Below are positions 1,047-41,013 of a stretch of DNA of 41,013 nt, piece after piece. This DNA is from a virus (lineage: Duplodnaviria; Caudoviricetes). The translations under genes were made by a program, and so were the position numbers. The stretch is from IMG/VR virus record IMGVR_UViG_3300020045_007779, positions 1-41,013 of that record; one strand, given 5' to 3'. Under the pieces are notes generated by a model. The model saw only the letters and a list, made by a program, of their open reading frames with translations, made no database searches and was not told where the DNA came from. The stretch's first letter is position 1. The number at the start of each line of letters is the position of its first letter.

Positions 1047-1853
1047 TTAATAAAAAATAATTCCATGATTTTTTTGCACCTTATTACAATTTTTCGCTTC
1101 TAAAGGTACGTAAAGAGGGTATTTTGTTTGATTATTTTCTAAGAATGCAACTAAAGAACTTTCTCTTAATTGAGCAGTATTTTCAATATTGGCAATTAAC
1201 CATTCAACGTCAGTTTTAGTAATAGCATTAATTTTATCACTTGTTGCAGTGTTAATACCTTGATTGTTAACCTTAGCCCATAGAAAAGGAATGCAAACAT
1301 AAAGAGTTCTAAGAACTGTAATTTGCTTTACATATTGCAATAGTCGCATATTGTCATTAATAAGCTGCAATTCTTGAGATGCAAAAGTTTGCAAATAAGA
1401 TTCATTCCCTTCAATCTCAATCGTGTAAGGTCCAGAACCTGAAACAATAAAGCTATTGTTTTTTACATAAGTCAAAATTTCAGCCTCTAAAACTGCAATT
1501 CTATCCAAGTCCTTTTGATTAGGGGTTTGAATCTCTAAAAGCTTTTCAAGTTCTTTTTCAGCCTTAATTTTAGCTATTGATATAATCTCATCACCAACTT
1601 GAATAGAGCCCCCTACATTAGCTGTAACTGTTAGAACGTTATTTGAACAACTTGCAGTGATTAAAGGTTGAATTTTTTGAATGTAAATCAAACGCTTCAA
1701 TTCGTTTGCTAAAGGCTGCGAAAGAATTCTATCTACGTAATCAGTTTGTGCATTGGTAATGTTTGAACTTAGCCACTCCCAATCAATGTTATTAGAGATT
1801 TGGCTAAATTCTGCAAAGTCTGATTTATTTATGTATTTTATGTTATTAATCAT
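1047..1853 (-). CDS. head-tail adaptor-like protein
   Basis: Directly after portal; N-terminal ISNNID...AQ..YV..IL and C-terminal FL..N...YPLY pattern typical of Bacteroidota phage adaptors. Confidence 0.6.
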   Translation of the reverse strand: MINNIKYINKSDFAEFSQISNNIDWEWLSSNITNAQTDYVDRILSQPLANELKRLIYIQKIQPLITASCSNNVLTVTANVGGSIQVGDEIISIAKIKAEKELEKLLEIQTPNQKDLDRIAVLEAEILTYVKNNSFIVSGSGPYTIEIEGNESYLQTFASQELQLINDNMRLLQYVKQITVLRTLYVCIPFLWAKVNNQGINTATSDKINAITKTDVEWLIANIENTAQLRESSLVAFLENNQTKYPLYVPLEAKNCNKVQKNHGIIFY

Positions 1854-4471: not shown

Positions 4472-5734
4472 TTAAAATTCTTTAATATTTATAACTCCGT
4501 AAACATTTTGATTTGTTGAAGTTGGCATGTATGCAAGTGTGTATACATCCAAAGTATTATCTATTTGCGAGCTTAAGAAACTCAAAAAGTTTTCCTTCAT
4601 TGTGTTGGTAACCCCTGCAAAGTTAGAAGTTGGAACGGCTGCAATTAAGCGACCCGAACTGGCTGTAATCGTATTCGCTGCAACATGCGCACCCTGTTCA
4701 ATTTTACCAATAGTAGTCCATGTAGTTGCTGCACCCGCAATAGTAGGATTAACAAAAAGCATTATTAATCCTGAATCAGTTGTTGAGTTTATTCCGACTG
4801 CAATGTCTAGAATTTGAATTGCAACATCTCTAAATGCGGTTTGCTTACGAATGCTTTTCAATGCGTAAATAGTTCCTATATTATTTGTTGTCATTGCAGT
4901 TGAATTTACAACTGAAAGAGTTTTACCGCCTTCATTTATACTTCCCTCCGTTGCAACTTGACAACAAATATATCTAAATGAACCCGTTCCAGTAGTTGAT
5001 CTAATTTCATAACGAACGGGTTGATTTGGAGAAAGTATAAAAGTATCTGTTGTGGTCCCTGCATATTTGTATGTATGAATCAATTCAAAACCGTTTGCAG
5101 TCATAACAAAGAAACGCAAATGAGTACCACCAAGCCAAAGGAAATCAAATGCAATTACATTAAAGTTACTCCAATTTTGCGAAGCTATTGCAGCATAATT
5201 ATCCATCGAAGTAAATGGAACATCTATTGTTAAAGTTCCGTTTCTGTACGCTTTAAGACTTTTAATTGTTCCATTGTCTTCTATAAAGAATCCATCAAAA
5301 TTTGAATCATAAGGAGCGACAGCATTTGAAGAAAAATAACCCACTCTTTTTGTTGTGTTTGATTCAGTTTGGAAATTATCAAAAGTAAATTCCATCAATT
5401 GAGATTTGCCATCAAAATATGGATTGAATCTTTTGCTTTGTCTAATTTCGTACTGTCCACTAGTAACAGCTAAATTTACTTTATTACTTCCATAAGTCGC
5501 TGTACCAGTTCCAACATTTTGAAACAATTGTAAATCGTCTTCCCCTAATAATTTACCAGTTAAAAGAGTTGTCATTTGTGAAACTCTTTGCCTTCCCGAA
5601 GCGTCAATTTGAAAAGGATTAAATGATGTGTTTGCAGTAACTGTTCCAGCTACTTGAGTAATTTGCGACCCATTAGTTAAAATCTCTTCTATATTATCAA
5701 AGTTATTAACAGGATCATTATAACTTAATTTCAT
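4472..5734 (-). CDS. virion protein with predicted beta-sandwich/lectin-like fold
   Basis: DASGRQRVS (DAFGRLRVS-like), R.GYF, DFLWLG and P.RYEI motifs. Confidence 0.6.
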   Translation of the reverse strand: MKLSYNDPVNNFDNIEEILTNGSQITQVAGTVTANTSFNPFQIDASGRQRVSQMTTLLTGKLLGEDDLQLFQNVGTGTATYGSNKVNLAVTSGQYEIRQSKRFNPYFDGKSQLMEFTFDNFQTESNTTKRVGYFSSNAVAPYDSNFDGFFIEDNGTIKSLKAYRNGTLTIDVPFTSMDNYAAIASQNWSNFNVIAFDFLWLGGTHLRFFVMTANGFELIHTYKYAGTTTDTFILSPNQPVRYEIRSTTGTGSFRYICCQVATEGSINEGGKTLSVVNSTAMTTNNIGTIYALKSIRKQTAFRDVAIQILDIAVGINSTTDSGLIMLFVNPTIAGAATTWTTIGKIEQGAHVAANTITASSGRLIAAVPTSNFAGVTNTMKENFLSFLSSQIDNTLDVYTLAYMPTSTNQNVYGVINIKEF

Positions 5735-6195
5735 AATGTTTTTCCATATGAGTTTAGAACTTCTTTTGCAGTAACGTCTCCAATAGTACGAAGTGTAAAA
5801 TTATAAACGTTCTCTCCTATCTTAATTTCTTTTGCAATCATTTTTATTTTATTTTCTCCTATGAATTTATATTTCCCATTTGAGTCTAAAAAGATGCAGA
5901 TTATTTCAGTCGCTTTCAATTGCTTAAGAGCGTTGTTAATTTCATTTGATGTTCCCTGAATGGTTAACGTTAGAGTTTGCAAATAGTTTCCATTGACTTC
6001 GGTTTCTGTAAACTCGCAATTTGGCAAGTCCAATAACTTCCAATATAACCAGTCCTGAGAACCTCTTAGAGCTGTGATAATTCCATCACCATCTAAATTA
6101 TACCCCTCATAAAATGAATAGTCACAAAACAAAATCTTTTGTAATCCTTTAGAATTACCCCCGCAATTTTTCAAAGGTGTTTGTGTTAATATCAT
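5731..6195 (-). CDS. tail tube-like protein (second paralogue)
   Basis: N-terminal C-x4/5-G-x3-I/L, Y.QTL.L and D.NG.Y..IG parallel the 36594..37451 protein. Confidence 0.55.
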   Translation of the reverse strand: MILTQTPLKNCGGNSKGLQKILFCDYSFYEGYNLDGDGIITALRGSQDWLYWKLLDLPNCEFTETEVNGNYLQTLTLTIQGTSNEINNALKQLKATEIICIFLDSNGKYKFIGENKIKMIAKEIKIGENVYNFTLRTIGDVTAKEVLNSYGKTL

Positions 6196-9100
6196 CCTAT
6201 ACTATTCATTAAATTAATTTTATTTACTCTATCAATACCTTCAACTACATCTACCACTCCAATCTGCAAATTTACAGATTTAAAGGCTTCTACCAAATTA
6301 TTTTTATTAATTTCACTTTGCACCCCTTCATTAAACATCTGAGTTGCGGGTTTGCCTAATGTTCCACCGGCTTCAAAAGTTTGATTTATCTTTTGTAAGA
6401 AGGGTAAATTTTGCATGGTCGCACGTTTGTTGACTATAAACTCACCACCTTCAACTTCAATATTATTAAATGCTCCAGTTCCTTTTATACCACCTTGAGC
6501 ATGTGAATTGCCTTTAAGAAGTCCACCACGTTCAAACTTAACAAATGATTTAACAGCAGCAAAACCAGCAGCCAAAGCAGCAACAACTAAAGGAATAATT
6601 ACAGGGGCACCTGCACCACTTTGAGCTGCAGCACTTGCAATTGCTCCAACTGATTGAGCAAGGGTTAAAACACTTTGCACTTGTGTTGCAAGTCTTTGCG
6701 CTTTAATTTGTTGCTGTCTAATCTTTTCCTCATCTAATGCTAATTGCTTTTTGGCAGCAGCTTCTTTTTGAATAGCTTGCTCAATTTTTGCACGTGATTC
6801 TAATTCCTGACTAAGTGAATTTTGTAAAAAGTCGCGTTCACTTCCTTTTGCAGTTTCTAATTGAGTGTTAATCGTATCAATCTCATTTTGAGTAGATTCT
6901 AATTTAGATTGAAGTAAACTAATTTGTTCATCTATTTTCTGTTTAGCTTCATTAATTACATCTAATCTTTGCTGTAAGTTTTCAAGTTGTTGATTAATAA
7001 TAATTTGCGAAACATCTGCTAAGCCTTGAGCGACTGCCAAACCAGCTTCAATTTCAGCCTGCACCGCTTCTTTTTTCTTAGCATCAACTGCAGCTTTTCT
7101 TTCAGATTCGTTAGCTTCTTTGCCTGTTTTGAATTCTAAATTAATAACAACATCTTCACCATTTAACGATTCTAATTCTTTTTTAAGTTTCTCTAAATCC
7201 TGCAACTGTTGAGAATTTTTATTCTTAGTTTGTTCAAGTTGCTTGATTTGAATCTCTAATCTTTTCTTTTCAATTTCAAGTTGTTCAAGTTGTAAATCTT
7301 TATTGGCTTGCAATTGATTAAAATTGTCATCATAGATTTTGTTAGTATCTGCAATTATATCTTTATAGATTTTACCAATGTTAAAAATGTTTCGTACTTG
7401 GTTTAATCGTTTTTCATTTTGCTGAATCGATAAATTAAGCAATCTTTGTTCTTCTTTACTATTTGCTTCCTGCAAATCAAATACTTTTTGAAGTTGCTTT
7501 TCTCTTAAATTCAATTGATTGTTTTCAGCTTCAGCTAATAATGCGAGATTTTCCAAAGATACTTCTAAAACTTTTTGATCTGCATCTATTTTTAATTGAG
7601 TCAATTCATTAAGCAAACTAATTTTTCTAATTTCCTCTTCATCTGTAAGTTTACCAATTTTATTAAGAGCATCAATTGAAATTTGAATTTCTTTCTCCTT
7701 TGCAGTTTGATTAAATCTAATTAACTTTTCAGCTTCTTCAATTCCTTTTTGCGTACGAATGTCAATGAACTCTAATTCTTTTTCATTTAATTGCAATTGA
7801 ATTTGTTGAGTAGCTTGCAAAAGTTGTCTATCTAATTCAGCAGCATTTATTTTAATAGCTCGAATACGATTTAATCCTGCTAATTCCTTTGATGCAACTT
7901 CTTCTTTTAATGCTGCAATTTCATTAGTTAAAGATTCATCTAAAAAGCTTAATGCTTCCAAATTAGCTATTTTGAACTTTGCAGCCTTAGTATCAGCCTC
8001 AACGCTTTTATTTACTAATTCCTCTTGTTTCTTTGCATTCGCTGTATTGAATAAAAGTTCTTGTTCAAGTAATCTTATTTTAGTAGCGTTTTGGATAGTT
8101 TGAGCATCAGTAATACTGTTAATTGAATCTAAAGTAATTTGTCTATTGTCTAAAATAAACTGAGTTTCTAATTGAATTAATTCGTTTTTCTTTGCGATTC
8201 TTTGCAATAATAGTTCGTCTCTTTTAGTTTGATCTGTTTCAAGTTTTTCAAGTTCATAAAGTAATCCAATTTCCTTTTCAATTATTGCATTACTTTGTTC
8301 ATAAATATCATTTGTTAGTTTTCTTTTTTCTCCAAAACTCGTAGCAATTGCAAGTTCTTTATTTAAGTTTGCTAAAACTTTAGAAGTGTCTGCAATTTCA
8401 ATTTGTAAATCCTGAAATTGTTTTTCTAAGTCTCTTTGCTTTCCTAGTCTTTCAAACTCATTATTAAAAGCAGTTAAAGGATTTTCAAAAGAAATAAGAG
8501 CCTTAAATCCAGAAATCAAACCAGCAACCGAATCACTAACAAAATTAATTACATTTGCTAAATTACCGAATGCAGATGTTAAAGCAGTTACAACTCCAAT
8601 AATTGCAGTTAGAATCACTAAAGGACTTTTTAATCCTTTACCCAGTAAATCAACTCCTTTACCCAATAGCGTTGCAGATTTACCACCTTTTGCAAGTGAA
8701 TCACTCCAACTATCTAAACCAGTTTTGAACTTCTTAAAACTCAAAACTGCAACCTCTGCACTGTCTTTAATTGCATTAACTGTAATTAAAGCTTTTTGAA
8801 TTCTTTCAATTGATTTTTCAGCAGCCCCACCAGTCCCTCCAAAAGCTTCACTTAATCCAATAAAAGCAGCCGAAGCCTTAGCAGAAAATTCAATAATAGC
8901 TTCAGGACTGAAAGCCTCTTCAAATGCTTTTGCAGTTTCTTCACTTTGTTTAATAGATTCTTCCTGCAATTTCAATGTTTTTTGAATTGCAGTGTTAGTA
9001 ATTGCAGAACTTTCCGAAACTTGTTTTTCAAATTCCTTAATAGAGTTGTTAGTCTTTTCAATTTGCTTATTGAGATTGTCCCATTCAGCTGATCCAAATT

Positions 9101-35077: not shown

Positions 35078-35592
35078 AAACAGCGATCTTATTTCTTAGC
35101 TTATTTCTCCTTAGCTGTTCAACTAAACAGCAGCAACCCGAGCCAATTCCCGACGCTTACACTTGCATCCAGTACAATGATTATTACGAAGATGCAACAT
35201 GTAAAGTATTTGGTTACCCTGATACACTCAGCCAGGATGCACTCAGATACGAATGGAGGCTCAAGAAACGCTTAACTCCTGAATGGCTTATGCTCACTAA
35301 GGCTAAACTAGAATCGAATAACCAACCTTGGATTTATAGGTTAGAAAAACGAATAGGGAAGATTTCGAGTGGCTTATTTCAACAACTTGGAGCCGACGCA
35401 ATAGAGTTAAGTATACAGGACCAAATGTCAAACTATGATAGTTTAATGAATTGGTGTATTACTAGAGCTGAAGGAGATTTAGCAAAAAGTATTTTTTATT
35501 ATAATACTCCTTATGGGGTGTATAGAGGGAACGAATGGTGGGTGATTAAAACGATGAGATATTATTATGGGACTTCCTTATCAGGGCAATAA
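35074..35592 (+). CDS. lipoprotein with an SLT lytic transglycosylase-like domain
   Basis: Lipobox LLSC; LES, SGLFQ and YYN motifs. Confidence 0.6.
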   Translation: MKTAILFLSLFLLSCSTKQQQPEPIPDAYTCIQYNDYYEDATCKVFGYPDTLSQDALRYEWRLKKRLTPEWLMLTKAKLESNNQPWIYRLEKRIGKISSGLFQQLGADAIELSIQDQMSNYDSLMNWCITRAEGDLAKSIFYYNTPYGVYRGNEWWVIKTMRYYYGTSLSGQ

Positions 35593-36544
35593 ATCAGAAA
35601 TTGCAGAAGAATTAGTTTTGTTTTTACGTCGATCATTTCCAGAGTATAAAAATTTTTATGATTTATTTGGAGGTGGTGGAACCATAAGTGAAACTGCATA
35701 TAAATATTACGATCGGGTAATATACAATGAATTGAACACATCTATATATTTAGCTTTTAATTCATTGATTGAAAGTAACTTTGAATGGCATTTACCTAAA
35801 AGCGAATTTATAACCTCAGAACAATTCAAAGAAATTAAAGATGGTCCAGATTCGGCTCGCAAAGGATTAGTTTTAAGTTGCTGGAGTTTTGGGAATAATC
35901 AAAAAGATTATCTTTACTCTATTGATTTAATGCCATTCAAACAAGCTTTGCATAACATTTGCTTTACAGATTCAGAAGAAACAATTATTGAATCCTTTGA
36001 AATCATGAGTAATAGAGTTTTTGAAAAACCAGAAAATTACACTATTCAATTTGATGCATCAAAGGCAAAGATATTATTAAAAACTCCTAAACATCAAAGG
36101 CGATTTAAGATTAGAAAATGCGTTTTAAGCAGATCGCTGCAAAGTCTGCAAAGTCTGCAAAGGCTGGAAAGTCTGGAAAGGCTGGAAAGGCTGGAAAGTC
36201 TGGAAAGGCTGGAAAGTCTGGAAAGGCTGGAAACTTATAATTTTGATTATAAAGATGTTTTTATAAAAGAAAATTCTATTGTTTATTGCGACATTCCTTA
36301 CAACTCAAACAAAACTAAAGGGAGTTATGGCTTACAATTTGATCATAATTCTTTTTATGAATGGGCTGCTAATCATGAATCGACTGTTGTTTTTTCTGAT
36401 TACTTTGAAAACGTTCCAGATAACTTTGAAGTCATTTGGCAAAAATCAAAAAGAAACAAACTTGCTGGAGGTTCTGATAAAAGAAGTATTGAAATTTTAG
36501 CATGGAATAAAAAAGGTAATCTAATTCAAACAACACTCTTCTAA
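35567..36544 (+). CDS. D12-class N6-adenine DNA methyltransferase
   Basis: PYQGNKS, DLFGGGG and YCDIPY. Confidence 0.85.
   Translation: MGLPYQGNKSEIAEELVLFLRRSFPEYKNFYDLFGGGGTISETAYKYYDRVIYNELNTSIYLAFNSLIESNFEWHLPKSEFITSEQFKEIKDGPDSARKGLVLSCWSFGNNQKDYLYSIDLMPFKQALHNICFTDSEETIIESFEIMSNRVFEKPENYTIQFDASKAKILLKTPKHQRRFKIRKCVLSRSLQSLQSLQRLESLERLERLESLERLESLERLETYNFDYKDVFIKENSIVYCDIPYNSNKTKGSYGLQFDHNSFYEWAANHESTVVFSDYFENVPDNFEVIWQKSKRNKLAGGSDKRSIEILAWNKKGNLIQTTLF
36137..36235 (+). repeat. 11 x 9-bp in-frame tandem repeat CTG(C/G)AAAG(T/G)
   Basis: Counted directly; encodes L-(Q/E)-(S/R); last unit degenerate. Confidence 0.95.
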
Positions 36545-36593: not shown

Positions 36594-37451
36594 CTATGCA
36601 CTTGTTGAACTTAACAAGTTATCAATAAACTCTTGTTGCTTGGTATACGTTCCAGCAGTTGAAGGAGCGGCTTTAGTTACCTTTGCGCCTGTAATTGTAG
36701 TGCTTGCAACAGTTTGTGAAACACTTACTGTATACGTTCCTACGCCTCCAGTACCCGTTAATCTAGCTGTAATAGTTGTTCCAGCTGTAACACCTGAACC
36801 ACTAAGAACCGAATTAACATCAACAGCACCCGAAGTTACAGCAGTAACAGTCAAAGTTGTTCCAGCAATTGAACCCGTTACAACACCAGCAACACCATAT
36901 AAAGGTCTGATTTCATACATCTCTTCATTCTCATTACCTCCTAAGGTAACGATATTTCCTGAAACATCCGTTTTAGCTGTACCAGTTTGACCGGTAGCAG
37001 AAGCCATCTTTAAACCGTTATCAATACCAAACGCAAGTAACATCCTTTGATTTCCTCCAAATTGAACTTGTGAAGTTGGATTTCTAGTTTCCACAATTGC
37101 AAAGATTCTTTCATTACTTCCAAGTTTCTTAATTGCATTTGTAACCTCTTGAGCTAAACTTGGAGCAGTAAATCCAATTGTTTGATTCCAAGAACCTGAA
37201 GCAGGATCAAAAACAGAACTTGCAAAGATTGAATCCTCTTTAGATTCGATTTTAACCAATTGAGGATAAACACCAGCACTAACTTCAGCCTTAAAAATGT
37301 CAGTAATTGCACCGTCAGCATCTAGTAAATAACCAGCGTCTGCACCTTCCAACCAATCAACTAAACCTAGATAGAGCGTTTTCGCTCCACCTAGATTATT
37401 TCCACAATATTTCGAGATACCTTCAATGGTACCAGTAAGACAAATTCCCAT
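36594..37451 (-). CDS. major tail tube-like protein with a C-terminal accessory module
   Basis: C.NNLGG...Y, W.QTI.F and G..NGL...TGTAKTD.SG....L.G.E; follows the capsid gene. Confidence 0.7.
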
Positions 37452-37464
37452 TTTTTAATTTTAA

Positions 37465-38913
37465 TTAAAATGTGTAAATGATGTGTTGACCTCTAATGTA
37501 GCCAAATCCAAAACCAGCAGCAGACTTCATGTAAACCTTGTCAGTTAATCTAGTTTGATCTGGGAAAACTTCTAATGCTAAAAGCTCATCAGCTTGATCT
37601 AAAGTTGCAGGAACCTTGATATTTTCCATGTGTGAACTAAACGCTTTATTTGCAGGAAAGCCAATTGCATATTTAATTGGAACACCTAAGAAGTAATCTT
37701 CATTTTGTGAAAAGTCAGGGCTTGTATTTCCAGAACCATCTTTATAAGTTCCACCTTGATTTAAAACTAAACCATATTCATCAGCAGTTTTTTTGTTAAT
37801 TTGCTGTAAATACTTTTTGAACATTGGATTAAACACAAAATAAAATTCAGGCATTGGCATGTCTGCAAAGTTATGAAAAGGAATTGCAGCATATAAGTCT
37901 TGTAACACAAACAAAGCATTAGAAGCGTTATAAGTTGCGAATCTAGCCTTAGCAACAACAGAAGCAACAGTTGCAGAATTTGAAACTGTATAAGTTCCTG
38001 TACCTCCATCGCTTGAATCAGTTGAAGTCAATTGAGCTACAATAGTAGTGTTAGCTGCAAAAGTTCCACCGCTAATAACTTGACCAACTCTTAACTTTCC
38101 TTGCAATACTTTTGTAACAGTCATTACAGTAGTACTTTGAGAAGCTACAATAATTGGATTAGGATCAATTACAGTTGATGTATTAATTGGAGCACTTGCA
38201 GCAGTTTGAGAAACCGAAACTGTATAAGTTCCAATACCACCGTCAAACTCTCCTACCTTTGTCAATTGCTCAACAATGTAAGTATTTGCAGCAACGTTAA
38301 CACCCGTAATTAAATCACCTGGCTTAAGATATTGCATGTTTCCTTCTGGCAACATGTAACCCTTATCAACAGCAGTAACAGTTAAAGTAGTAGTTGAGAT
38401 TGAACCAGTCACTTCAACACCTAATTCAGAAGTTGCATCATCTGCTAATTGAGTAAGAATACCATCTGCAACATTCAATGGAACTGTTGCAGCTCCAGTA
38501 TCACCAATCCAAAAACATCTACTAATATCTAAAGCAGTGTGTCTTTTTGTGTCGTCAATCCAAATTTGAGTTACATCAGATTCAACTTGATCTGCGTTTT
38601 CAAACTTATCTTTCAAAGTTCTGAAACATTCTTCTTTATTGATTTTCCAACGTTTAATTTCAAACGTTTTTTCATAAAGTGTAATATCTCCTAAAGCATT
38701 CCAAGCGCATGAAAGGTTGTCACCTTGCAAACCTGAAACACCAGATACAAAACCTAGTCTTCTTTTCTTTCCAATGTTTGGAATTAGTGTTGCAATACCT
38801 GTTTTAATTGGATCAGTAGAAGCCAATGCCTCTGCATACCATTCAGCAGTTTCAGGAACTGTATAAGTAATATCAGTTACGATACTTTGCTTAACCTCGT
38901 TATTTTTTCCCAT
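37465..38913 (-). CDS. major capsid protein with two inserted modules
   Basis: After protease/scaffold; EEC...L, FW.GD...DG, N....L..LY.AIP and terminal GFG....I.Y. Confidence 0.8.
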   Translation of the reverse strand: MGKNNEVKQSIVTDITYTVPETAEWYAEALASTDPIKTGIATLIPNIGKKRRLGFVSGVSGLQGDNLSCAWNALGDITLYEKTFEIKRWKINKEECFRTLKDKFENADQVESDVTQIWIDDTKRHTALDISRCFWIGDTGAATVPLNVADGILTQLADDATSELGVEVTGSISTTTLTVTAVDKGYMLPEGNMQYLKPGDLITGVNVAANTYIVEQLTKVGEFDGGIGTYTVSVSQTAASAPINTSTVIDPNPIIVASQSTTVMTVTKVLQGKLRVGQVISGGTFAANTTIVAQLTSTDSSDGGTGTYTVSNSATVASVVAKARFATYNASNALFVLQDLYAAIPFHNFADMPMPEFYFVFNPMFKKYLQQINKKTADEYGLVLNQGGTYKDGSGNTSPDFSQNEDYFLGVPIKYAIGFPANKAFSSHMENIKVPATLDQADELLALEVFPDQTRLTDKVYMKSAAGFGFGYIRGQHIIYTF

Positions 38914-38915
38914 GA

Positions 38916-40007
38916 TTATTTTTTATTTTTAGCTTTGTTAATGCCTTGTTGAATTGCTTGTGATAATGTTAAAGTTTCTTGTTTAATGTTTACAGGCTCG
39001 CTATTAGTTACAAGTTCTACCTTTGCAGCTGGTTGCTTACCTAGTTCTACAATTGTCTTTTTAAGGATTTCAATTTCTTGAATTTGGTTTTGAATAATCA
39101 AATCCTTTTGAATGACTAAAGCTTTTTGAGCTACCATTTCAACGGATTCAATACTTCCTAAACCTTCAGTGACAATCAAATTACTTCCATCAGACAAAGG
39201 ATAAACTCCATCAGGGACAACATCTCCTAAACTTCCATCCTCATTTAAGTAGTTGCACATCATTGTTTCTTCATCCCAATTGATTGAAACTCCATCACTT
39301 GTTACAAATACTAATTGTTTAACTTGCACCTCTTCAGGGGTTGTTGTTTCATTTGGATTAGGTTCTGCAATGTCTTCTAATTTAGTATCTAGTGTATAAC
39401 CAGCACCAAACCAACCACGCAAGAAATCCAAAATCGTTTTACTTTTTGTGTTTTCCATAATAATTAAATTTTGTTCGATAGGCTCCAAATCAAAAAATGC
39501 TTCGATTGAAAATCCTTTATATTTTTGTAGAAATTCATCTGTTAAGTCAGCAGGATTAAAAGCTCTGAATTCAGCCATCCAAGTTCCGACCGGCAAATCA
39601 AATCCAAATCCGTTGCTTTTATCATGTTCCTTAAACTCAATACACCAGTTTTCTATAAATGACCCTTTTATTTTTTGAGTAGAATCATGTTGTAAGTTAG
39701 ATTGAGTAATTAAATTTTGAGAAACAAACTTATCTTTAGCTTGTTTGATTACCTCTTTATCATAAACAATGTAATAATATTGTTGTGTTTGTTTGTGTAA
39801 TCGCAAAATTGGCATGTCAGGAATTAAGACAGGACCAATCAAACGCGTTTTATCTGCACTTAATGTTACCAGCTTAGCCTTTTCTAAAGTCGCAAACATA
39901 GCAATAAAGTCTTCTTTAATTGCAGGCTGGTCCACTAGCGAAATAGCATAAACACCATTTTGCGGATCATCATTAATTGTAGCTTTATAAACTGGATATT
40001 TTAACAT
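38916..40007 (-). CDS. prohead protease (XkdF-like) fused to scaffold
   Basis: AISLVD.PAI..DF, GPVLIPD, H, E.W, LP.GTW and GFSIEA.F; acidic C-terminus. Confidence 0.85.
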   Translation of the reverse strand: MLKYPVYKATINDDPQNGVYAISLVDQPAIKEDFIAMFATLEKAKLVTLSADKTRLIGPVLIPDMPILRLHKQTQQYYYIVYDKEVIKQAKDKFVSQNLITQSNLQHDSTQKIKGSFIENWCIEFKEHDKSNGFGFDLPVGTWMAEFRAFNPADLTDEFLQKYKGFSIEAFFDLEPIEQNLIIMENTKSKTILDFLRGWFGAGYTLDTKLEDIAEPNPNETTTPEEVQVKQLVFVTSDGVSINWDEETMMCNYLNEDGSLGDVVPDGVYPLSDGSNLIVTEGLGSIESVEMVAQKALVIQKDLIIQNQIQEIEILKKTIVELGKQPAAKVELVTNSEPVNIKQETLTLSQAIQQGINKAKNKK

Positions 40008-40011
40008 TGCG

Positions 40012-40019
40012 CAAAAATA
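40012..40019 (-). promoter_or_regulatory. -7 box TATTTTTG 4 nt before the protease ATG
   Basis: Exact TAnnTTTG match. Confidence 0.65.
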
Positions 40020-40044
40020 AAAAGTAAAAAAAAATTAGTTATTA

Positions 40045-40076
40045 TTTGGTACCGTAAAATAAAGCTTTTATATTTG
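40045..40076 (+). promoter_or_regulatory. divergent promoter
   Basis: TTTG-N20-TATATTTG. Confidence 0.75.
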
Positions 40077-40746: not shown

Positions 40747-40914
40747 GTATGCCACTTGCAATAAAAATAGAATTTTTAAAAAATGTATTATCTGGAAACG
40801 TTAATGGATTTTTAGATTCAAAAAGCAATCATGAAAATTTTTGAACTTGGAGTTTATTTAGGAATGATAAAACAAAAATCATTGAATCATAGAGTTCCAA
40901 TGAAAAATCAAATT

Positions 40915-41013
40915 AAAGCTTTATTTTACGGTACCAAATAATAACTAATTTTTTTTTACTTTTTATTTTTGCGCAATGTTAAAATATCCAGTTTATAAAG
41001 CTACAATTAATGA
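40915..41013. repeat. perfect 99-bp inverted copy of 39970..40068
   Basis: Base-by-base reverse-complement match ending at the contig end. Confidence 0.95.

Follow-up and report, generated by a model that had tools for sequence, protein, structure and literature searches.

A tandem beta-barrel module in a predicted HK97-fold capsid protein and its occurrence on other virion proteins

Head and tail genes at the locus

The stretch of DNA analysed here (the window; 41,013 nucleotides) corresponds to a linear virus record from IMG/VR that is about 72% complete and encodes a terminase, a portal protein, a tape measure protein, and a holin. Related DNA with about 85-95% identity was found in two lake-water runs and in one "fungus metagenome" run. 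The main features are:

1047..1853, minus strand: DUF6712 ORF, 268 aa, beside the portal gene; its position suggests an adaptor
1578..1664, minus strand: partial, degenerate fourth module copy (first ~30 aa) within the DUF6712 ORF; profile E 1.4e-5
36594..37451, minus strand: likely tail tube protein, 285 aa (Atlas matches, homolog in L160, paralog beside the tape measure gene)
36684..36890, minus strand: module copy of the likely tube protein (aa ~189-255), with ~30 aa after it; profile E 4.5e-28
37465..38913, minus strand: major capsid protein (MCP), 482 aa, predicted HK97 fold with a two-barrel insertion of ~155 aa (AF2, Foldseek, VIA)
37951..38154, minus strand: module copy r2, aa ~253-322; profile E 1.9e-21
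38176..38421, minus strand: module copy r1, aa ~166-245, with a clade-specific extra loop of ~9 aa; profile E 2.2e-20
38916..40007, minus strand: 363-aa ORF upstream of the MCP gene; phrog_24921 (unknown function), E 9.4e-32

According to its AF2 model (29 sequences; pLDDT 83.8, pTM 0.83), the 482-aa protein is an HK97-fold MCP, as an earlier note on this DNA had proposed. The model was searched with the insert present and matched HK97-type capsids in Foldseek (probability 1.0, E 1.4e-7), while VIA returned Z-scores of 15.8 to 7jw1 (rmsd 4.4, 281 residues aligned) and 13.2 to HK97 (1ohg). The Atlas comparison agrees with an HK97-type capsid, terminase and portal are encoded in the same record, and a core-HMM search of the record revealed no second capsid candidate. 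None of the MCP, the module, or the tube protein gave a significant match when searched by sequence against the PDB. A word-index search with the N-terminal half of the MCP retrieved only the MCP itself, and the GenBank phage collection held no match to this half, to the tandem insert, or to P0131.

In the model, the insert (residues 166-325; all beta, blocks 83-97) is located in the linker between the region of the spine helix (residues 114-136) and the first A-domain helix (residues 333-343), and is followed by 157 core residues. It consists of the copies r1 and r2, which the earlier note had described as two tandem modules of ~70 aa and which proved to be ~66 aa each. The copies r1, r2, and that of the likely tube protein show 48-55% pairwise identity; their local scores of 131-133 compare with maxima of 57-77 for shuffled sequences, and 0 of 2000 shuffles per pair reached them. 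Similarity also persists at the DNA level around the GTYTVS codons, as had been noticed (68-79% over 47 nt among module copies). Both junctions between insert and core are spanned by contigs of related phages (about 88-93% alike; two sequencing runs), and the insert is thus no chimera of this assembly.

The adjacent 285-aa ORF likely codes for the tail tube protein. It has no Pfam match and no PDB sequence match; Atlas feature matches to tail-tube clusters (0.84-0.88) are at lead level (<0.9), with all named rows being tube families, and the Atlas structural alignment to relatives of 181-187 aa extends to residue 281-283. A 154-aa paralog of the tube core, which lacks the module, is encoded next to the tape measure gene (window 5731-6195; 27% identity, same PHROG 19091). 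The earlier note had a third module copy cap the tail tube gene. The copy is indeed present in this ORF, but ~30 aa follow it, and the tube identity is likely rather than certain.

In a second, distant phage (L160), a two-copy MCP is directly followed by a one-copy homolog of the 285-aa protein (40% identical). The claim that head and tail proteins both carry the module is supported by this recurrent pairing. The pair of L160 lies among non-structural genes (L160:1979-3516, 5517-7790), and nearby ORFs resemble, by eye, the hub and spike genes of myoviruses; the tail to which this pair belongs may be of a different type.

When the record was searched with a profile of 81 module copies, four matches were obtained. 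The degenerate one is in the DUF6712 ORF (1047-1853), which shows the first half of the module, then a charged helical stretch, and faintly a possible second half.

The 363-aa ORF might, from its position, code for a protease or scaffold protein. A 102-nt inverted repeat (window 39970-40071 and 40912-41013; 99% complementary) encloses 840 nt located upstream of the head genes, and it ends where the contig ends; it may delimit an invertible promoter segment or be an assembly artefact. Tandem repeats of 9 nt coding for (L-E-S/R)n occur at window 36127-36243 within the ORF of a D12-class adenine methyltransferase (35567-36544) and possibly represent a length-variable tract.

Fold and sequence relationships of the module

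The module was also modelled alone (pLDDT 94.6 for the tube copy). Its ~66 residues, rich in Thr and Gly, model as a six-stranded barrel of the EF-Tu-domain-II/FCCH type, a class which we take to be RIFT. In a search against 48,161 chains, the best match was to residues 7-77 of gp7 from Arthrobacter phage Bridgette (PDB 8ECI; Z 7.4, rmsd 2.0, 65 residues aligned, 37% identity), effectively tied with two archaeal proteins that score within 1 Z of it. Lower in the list are domain II barrels of translation factors, the FCCH domain of UBA1 (Z 5.5), and phage tail domains. For gp7, domain II of IF2/EF-Tu/SelB, UBA1 FCCH, and the phage tail domains, 61-72 of 73 residues were aligned with rmsd 2.0-3.3 and Z 4.5-7.4. 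This barrel class dominates the 50 matches listed, with Z-scores that are middling and never reach 8. Foldseek again placed gp7 first (E 0.036, TM 0.75), and gp7 scores 7.6 bits on the module HMM compared to at most 0.1 in 1000 shuffles. Like the MCP insert, gp7 is located at the capsid surface; it differs in being a separate protein of 126 aa, not an insertion, and in lacking the conserved Gly-Gly-x-Gly-Thr-Tyr hairpin. Indivirus collagen-repeat proteins are also among the structural matches. No Ig chains were identified among the top structural matches listed, the best being barrels, and the I-domains of P22 (2M5S, coat residues 226-344) and crAss phages are not among the 50 fold matches listed.

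At the sequence level, the Pfam scan of module copies yielded no family that covers the module; Big_6 matched 3 of 81 copies at noise level (E 0.015). E1_FCCH (PF16190) shares the barrel class (Z 5.5 to UBA1, as above, and Z 5.8 to the Mystique tube) and, on phage tail tubes, faces outward according to the available part of PMC13576161. The module is nevertheless a distinct sequence family: none of the 81 copies matches E1_FCCH at E <= 1, P0001 and P0002 show no match either, and hhalign of the module against a single FCCH copy gave no signal. Most of its conserved positions are occupied by Gly or Thr; a single Tyr (92%) is also conserved.

Random module copies from unrelated, non-capsid proteins share 54% identity on average. 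The tube copy is 82% identical to copies in unrelated phages, compared to 59% and 54% to the capsid copies of its own genome, which take ranks 290 and 403 of 562. The three window copies are thus no recent duplicates, and a recent spread inside this genome, as implied earlier, is ruled out.

Charged residues make up less than 3% and Ser plus Thr 34% of 183 representative copies; in the window copies, Ser plus Thr reach 22-39% compared to 12% in the MCP core. Such a surface, hydrated or O-glycosylated, might hide the virion from proteases, mineral adsorption, and host defences, and every outer part can carry the module. Thr-rich strands are, on the other hand, common in small beta proteins, and no glycosyltransferase Pfam match was found among the 46 ORFs scanned in this record, which is about 72% complete. 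We consider a shield or glycosylation scaffold quite unlikely.

Capsid proteins with and without the insertion

A search with the N-terminal half of the MCP gave 36 proteins, to which a module search added P0003, P0006, and P0007. After removal of six fragments and one unrelated repeat protein from the 36, 32 full-length MCPs were left. The linker spans 176-182 aa in seven of these, 22-31 aa in 24, and 98 aa in one (P0154), where the insert is an E1_FCCH domain (E 9.5e-9). The earlier note had raised the prospect that close relatives all carry the insert; this does not hold, given 24 full-length relatives without it, which in itself shows only that the family manages without. Its proposal of an insertion into a capsid loop is supported by a permissive linker left empty in most relatives.

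In a tree computed with the insert columns removed (LG+G4, root chosen by hand), the seven insert-bearing MCPs form a single branch (support 98/98), and P0154 sits far from them beside the insert-less P0151 (100/100). As the seven form one clade and insert-less relatives exist, a single ancient gain of the tandem pair, followed by its retention, is most likely. Between the five insert lineages, the core is 26-34% identical compared to 49-67% for the insert, a difference which partly reflects the family baseline because random non-capsid copies already share 54%. The copies have kept their positional identity (61% and 59% within r1 and r2, 48% between them), and the r1 loop and the r1-r2 linker are kept in 7/7.

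Two insert-less members of the family, P0134 and P0135, have C-terminal extensions of roughly 110-220 aa with no Pfam match. Locus searches with P0001, P0126, P0007, and P0004 gave no matches, and a degenerate DNA pattern search returned seven loci, none with module or capsid.

The module also occurs in a T7-like capsid family. The 414-aa MCP of L188 (Gp10A-like, E 9e-31; matches to P-SCSP1u and T7 gp10A) carries one copy at aa 156-226, between the spine helix and the first A-domain helix; the top viral-structure match, the "major capsid protein" A0A6J5SIT1, likewise has 414 aa. From the best 80 of 103 relatives, 70 full-length MCPs were obtained (69 loci plus L188). The module is present in 14/70 and absent from 56/70, which is no prevalence figure because the ranking favours insert-bearing proteins. 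Eleven further loci were not parsed full length (seven with the module, one of them frameshifted; three without; one uninformative). A branch with SH-aLRT 100 (fast search) separates the 14 insert-bearing proteins from the others. Their cores are 73-82% identical to that of the closest protein without the insert, and capsids of this kind therefore also occur without the module. At L302:1501-2766, a capsid gene of the T7-like type is interrupted by several frameshifts and its module is split, through either sequencing error or decay. A downstream tail protein at L188:4418-6211 has a different Thr/Gly-rich tandem repeat.

Judged from the sequences, the T7-like clade acquired the same module independently. 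A common origin of both capsid insertions was rejected, as the window-clade copies take ranks 86-408 of 563 when ordered by similarity to the T7-like copy, and the profiles of the two capsid families do not align. The equivalence of the two sites therefore rests on element order; relative to the short strand of the linker, the insert seems to lie before it in the T7-like family and after it in the window family. Judged by element order, the linker before the HK97 A-domain would have received at least three independent insertions (the module twice, FCCH once). As a natural site with room for 70-155 additional residues in two unrelated capsid families, it is relevant to how capsids evolve and to the design of display systems. 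For the role of such surface domains, a clean natural comparison is available in the T7-like clade, whose members occur both with and without the module.

The earlier statement that accessory capsid domains are usually separate proteins or terminal fusions is overstated, since internal beta-barrel insertions in HK97 capsids are known (I-domains of P22 and crAss001, described in the accessible parts of PMC5701804 and PMC10172136). The coat protein I-domain of P22, Sf6, and CUS-3 is a six-stranded beta-barrel inside an HK97-fold protein (PMC5701804, available text); in P22, it comprises residues 226-344 and is joined at strands of the A-domain sheet (PMC10172136, PMC5701804, same parts). The window insert, in contrast, precedes the first A-domain helix and is tandem, smaller, nearly uncharged, and missing from most relatives. 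Judged by element order, it lies before both A-domain helices and not at the P22-type site (A-domain sheet after beta1). The I-domain of the crAss001 MCP, like the insert in the E-loop of T4, represents a P22-like barrel reused elsewhere on the HK97 fold. It differs from the window insert in its E-loop site, in being widespread in crassviruses, and in being part of a stabilising three-fold assembly (all from the accessible part of PMC10172136); no sequence link between this I-domain and the module was found. Extra insertion domains are mentioned for the capsids of Mic1, Pam1, and Pam3 in the available text of PMC12002296, that of Pam3 being an inner segment of 11 residues according to the part of PMC9942802 that could be consulted. 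Depending on where they lie, the insertions of Mic1 and Pam1 might make this capsid site less novel. Barrels inserted into capsid proteins are already known from P22 and crAss001, as are promiscuous virion domains of the Ig-like and FCCH kinds. No account of the module, or of any domain placed in this linker, was found in the literature covered, which excludes most subscription papers. The anatomy and evolution of the insertion as described here are well supported.

By analogy with the P22 and crAss001 I-domains, which are described as barrels of the same broad class (PMC5701804, PMC10172136, as far as accessible), or as a capsid-fused counterpart of a gp7-type decoration protein, the barrels might lock neighbouring subunits as a built-in cement. 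The dimers of Bridgette gp7 ring the pentamer, according to the available part of its description, and the preserved identity of r1 and r2, of the r1 loop, and of the r1-r2 linker fits such contacts. The module is, however, nearly uncharged, whereas the P22 I-domain docks by charge; close T7-like relatives do without it, and it is also found on fibres and bacterial proteins, where there is no capsid lattice. A complex prediction with two copies of the tandem insert scored 0.02 compared to a mark of 0.42 and speaks neither for nor against binding. We regard a cement function as unlikely.

Carriers of the module and its proposed role

The insert search matched 590 proteins. Among 159 loci selected by module motifs, 158 have a copy and 67 have at least two carrier proteins, mostly one adaptor/head-closure pair. 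The 350 carrier sequences were grouped into 42 clusters. The 48 representatives (30 with no Pfam match) include head closure, adaptor, two cement families, lambda-gpD-like, sheath, tube, terminator, baseplate J, and fibre proteins, and one fixed partner surface is unlikely since these clusters cover most outer virion parts. In the cultured phage phi3LM21, the module is found in a tail fibre. By the tool's estimate, about 4100 stored IMG/VR stretches match the module motifs. An uncatalogued and very common virion domain family is thereby defined and linked to a solved decoration protein.

Loci from genome contigs contain the module in 49/49 cases. Pfam matches were found for 12 carriers among the 38 scanned of 57 proteins: T7-like MCP, Tad (2), Laminin_G_3 (2), GH5, Calx-beta, Big_1, RHS, G8, beta-helix, and GDSL. 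Some of these carriers may stem from viral contigs in bins. The discrete, mobile all-beta module that had been postulated is corroborated by its own confidently predicted fold together with its many unrelated carrier proteins.

A patchy distribution, with 1-28 copies per carrier, a degenerate copy in the adaptor ORF, and many relatives without the module, would also be compatible with a near-neutral passenger, that is, an easily folded domain which recombines into tolerant loops and is kept at little cost. We think this quite unlikely, given an ordered pair that is intact across lineages with cores only 26-34% identical, and given that the most abundant virion protein becomes 50% heavier through the insert.

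Our main reading, to which we assign a probability slightly above one half (about 0.55), is that the module forms an optional, outward-facing coat, likely binding weakly to polysaccharides or surfaces. The barrel ends would lie together, which would allow the module to drop into loops without disturbing the host fold. The barrels would face the outside close to the centre of the capsomer, with about 830 of them on each head if T=7, and many weak contacts could hold the particle near host cells or other particles, as proposed for phage Ig-like domains. Those domains are exchanged promiscuously among unrelated structural and bacterial surface proteins and were proposed to bind carbohydrates weakly (Fraser et al. 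2006, as quoted in the available part of PMC9230969). The module is similarly fused to unrelated virion and surface proteins; it differs by matching barrels rather than sandwiches and by being internal in the capsid protein, not appended.

A coat is supported by the absence of the module from 24 relatives in the window family and from 56 of 70 T7-like MCPs, by its presence on most kinds of outer virion protein and on some bacterial surface-type proteins, by fusions to Tad pilus, GH5, Laminin_G_3, Calx-beta, and Big_1 domains (38 genome-contig proteins scanned), and by its low charge and high Ser/Thr content. Glycan-binding modules usually show more conserved aromatics than the single conserved Tyr found here, which is perhaps structural. 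The closest solved relative, gp7, is an external capsid decoration protein and fits a coat; it binds the capsid as dimers, a protein-protein setting which argues against one (bioRxiv 10.1101/2022.09.09.507160, available part). Also against a coat, conservation of the insert in this clade is about double that of the core, and this, like the charged loop of r1, fits a fixed structural contact; the fold Z-scores are middling.

A broader view extends the coat reading: the linker before the HK97 A-domain would be a recurrent landing site for small barrels, and the module would represent an extensive adhesin family, as yet without a name, in environmental phages. This family would correspond, as a barrel, to the Ig-like domains, coat heads in hundreds of copies, and be shared with bacterial pili and glycanases. 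We put this forward tentatively and with some doubt.

Among the carrier loci, four neighbouring genes each contain the module at L209:2140-6240, and giant open frames with no Pfam match contain 28 and 19 copies at L152:1-9138 and L120:1-6516, respectively.
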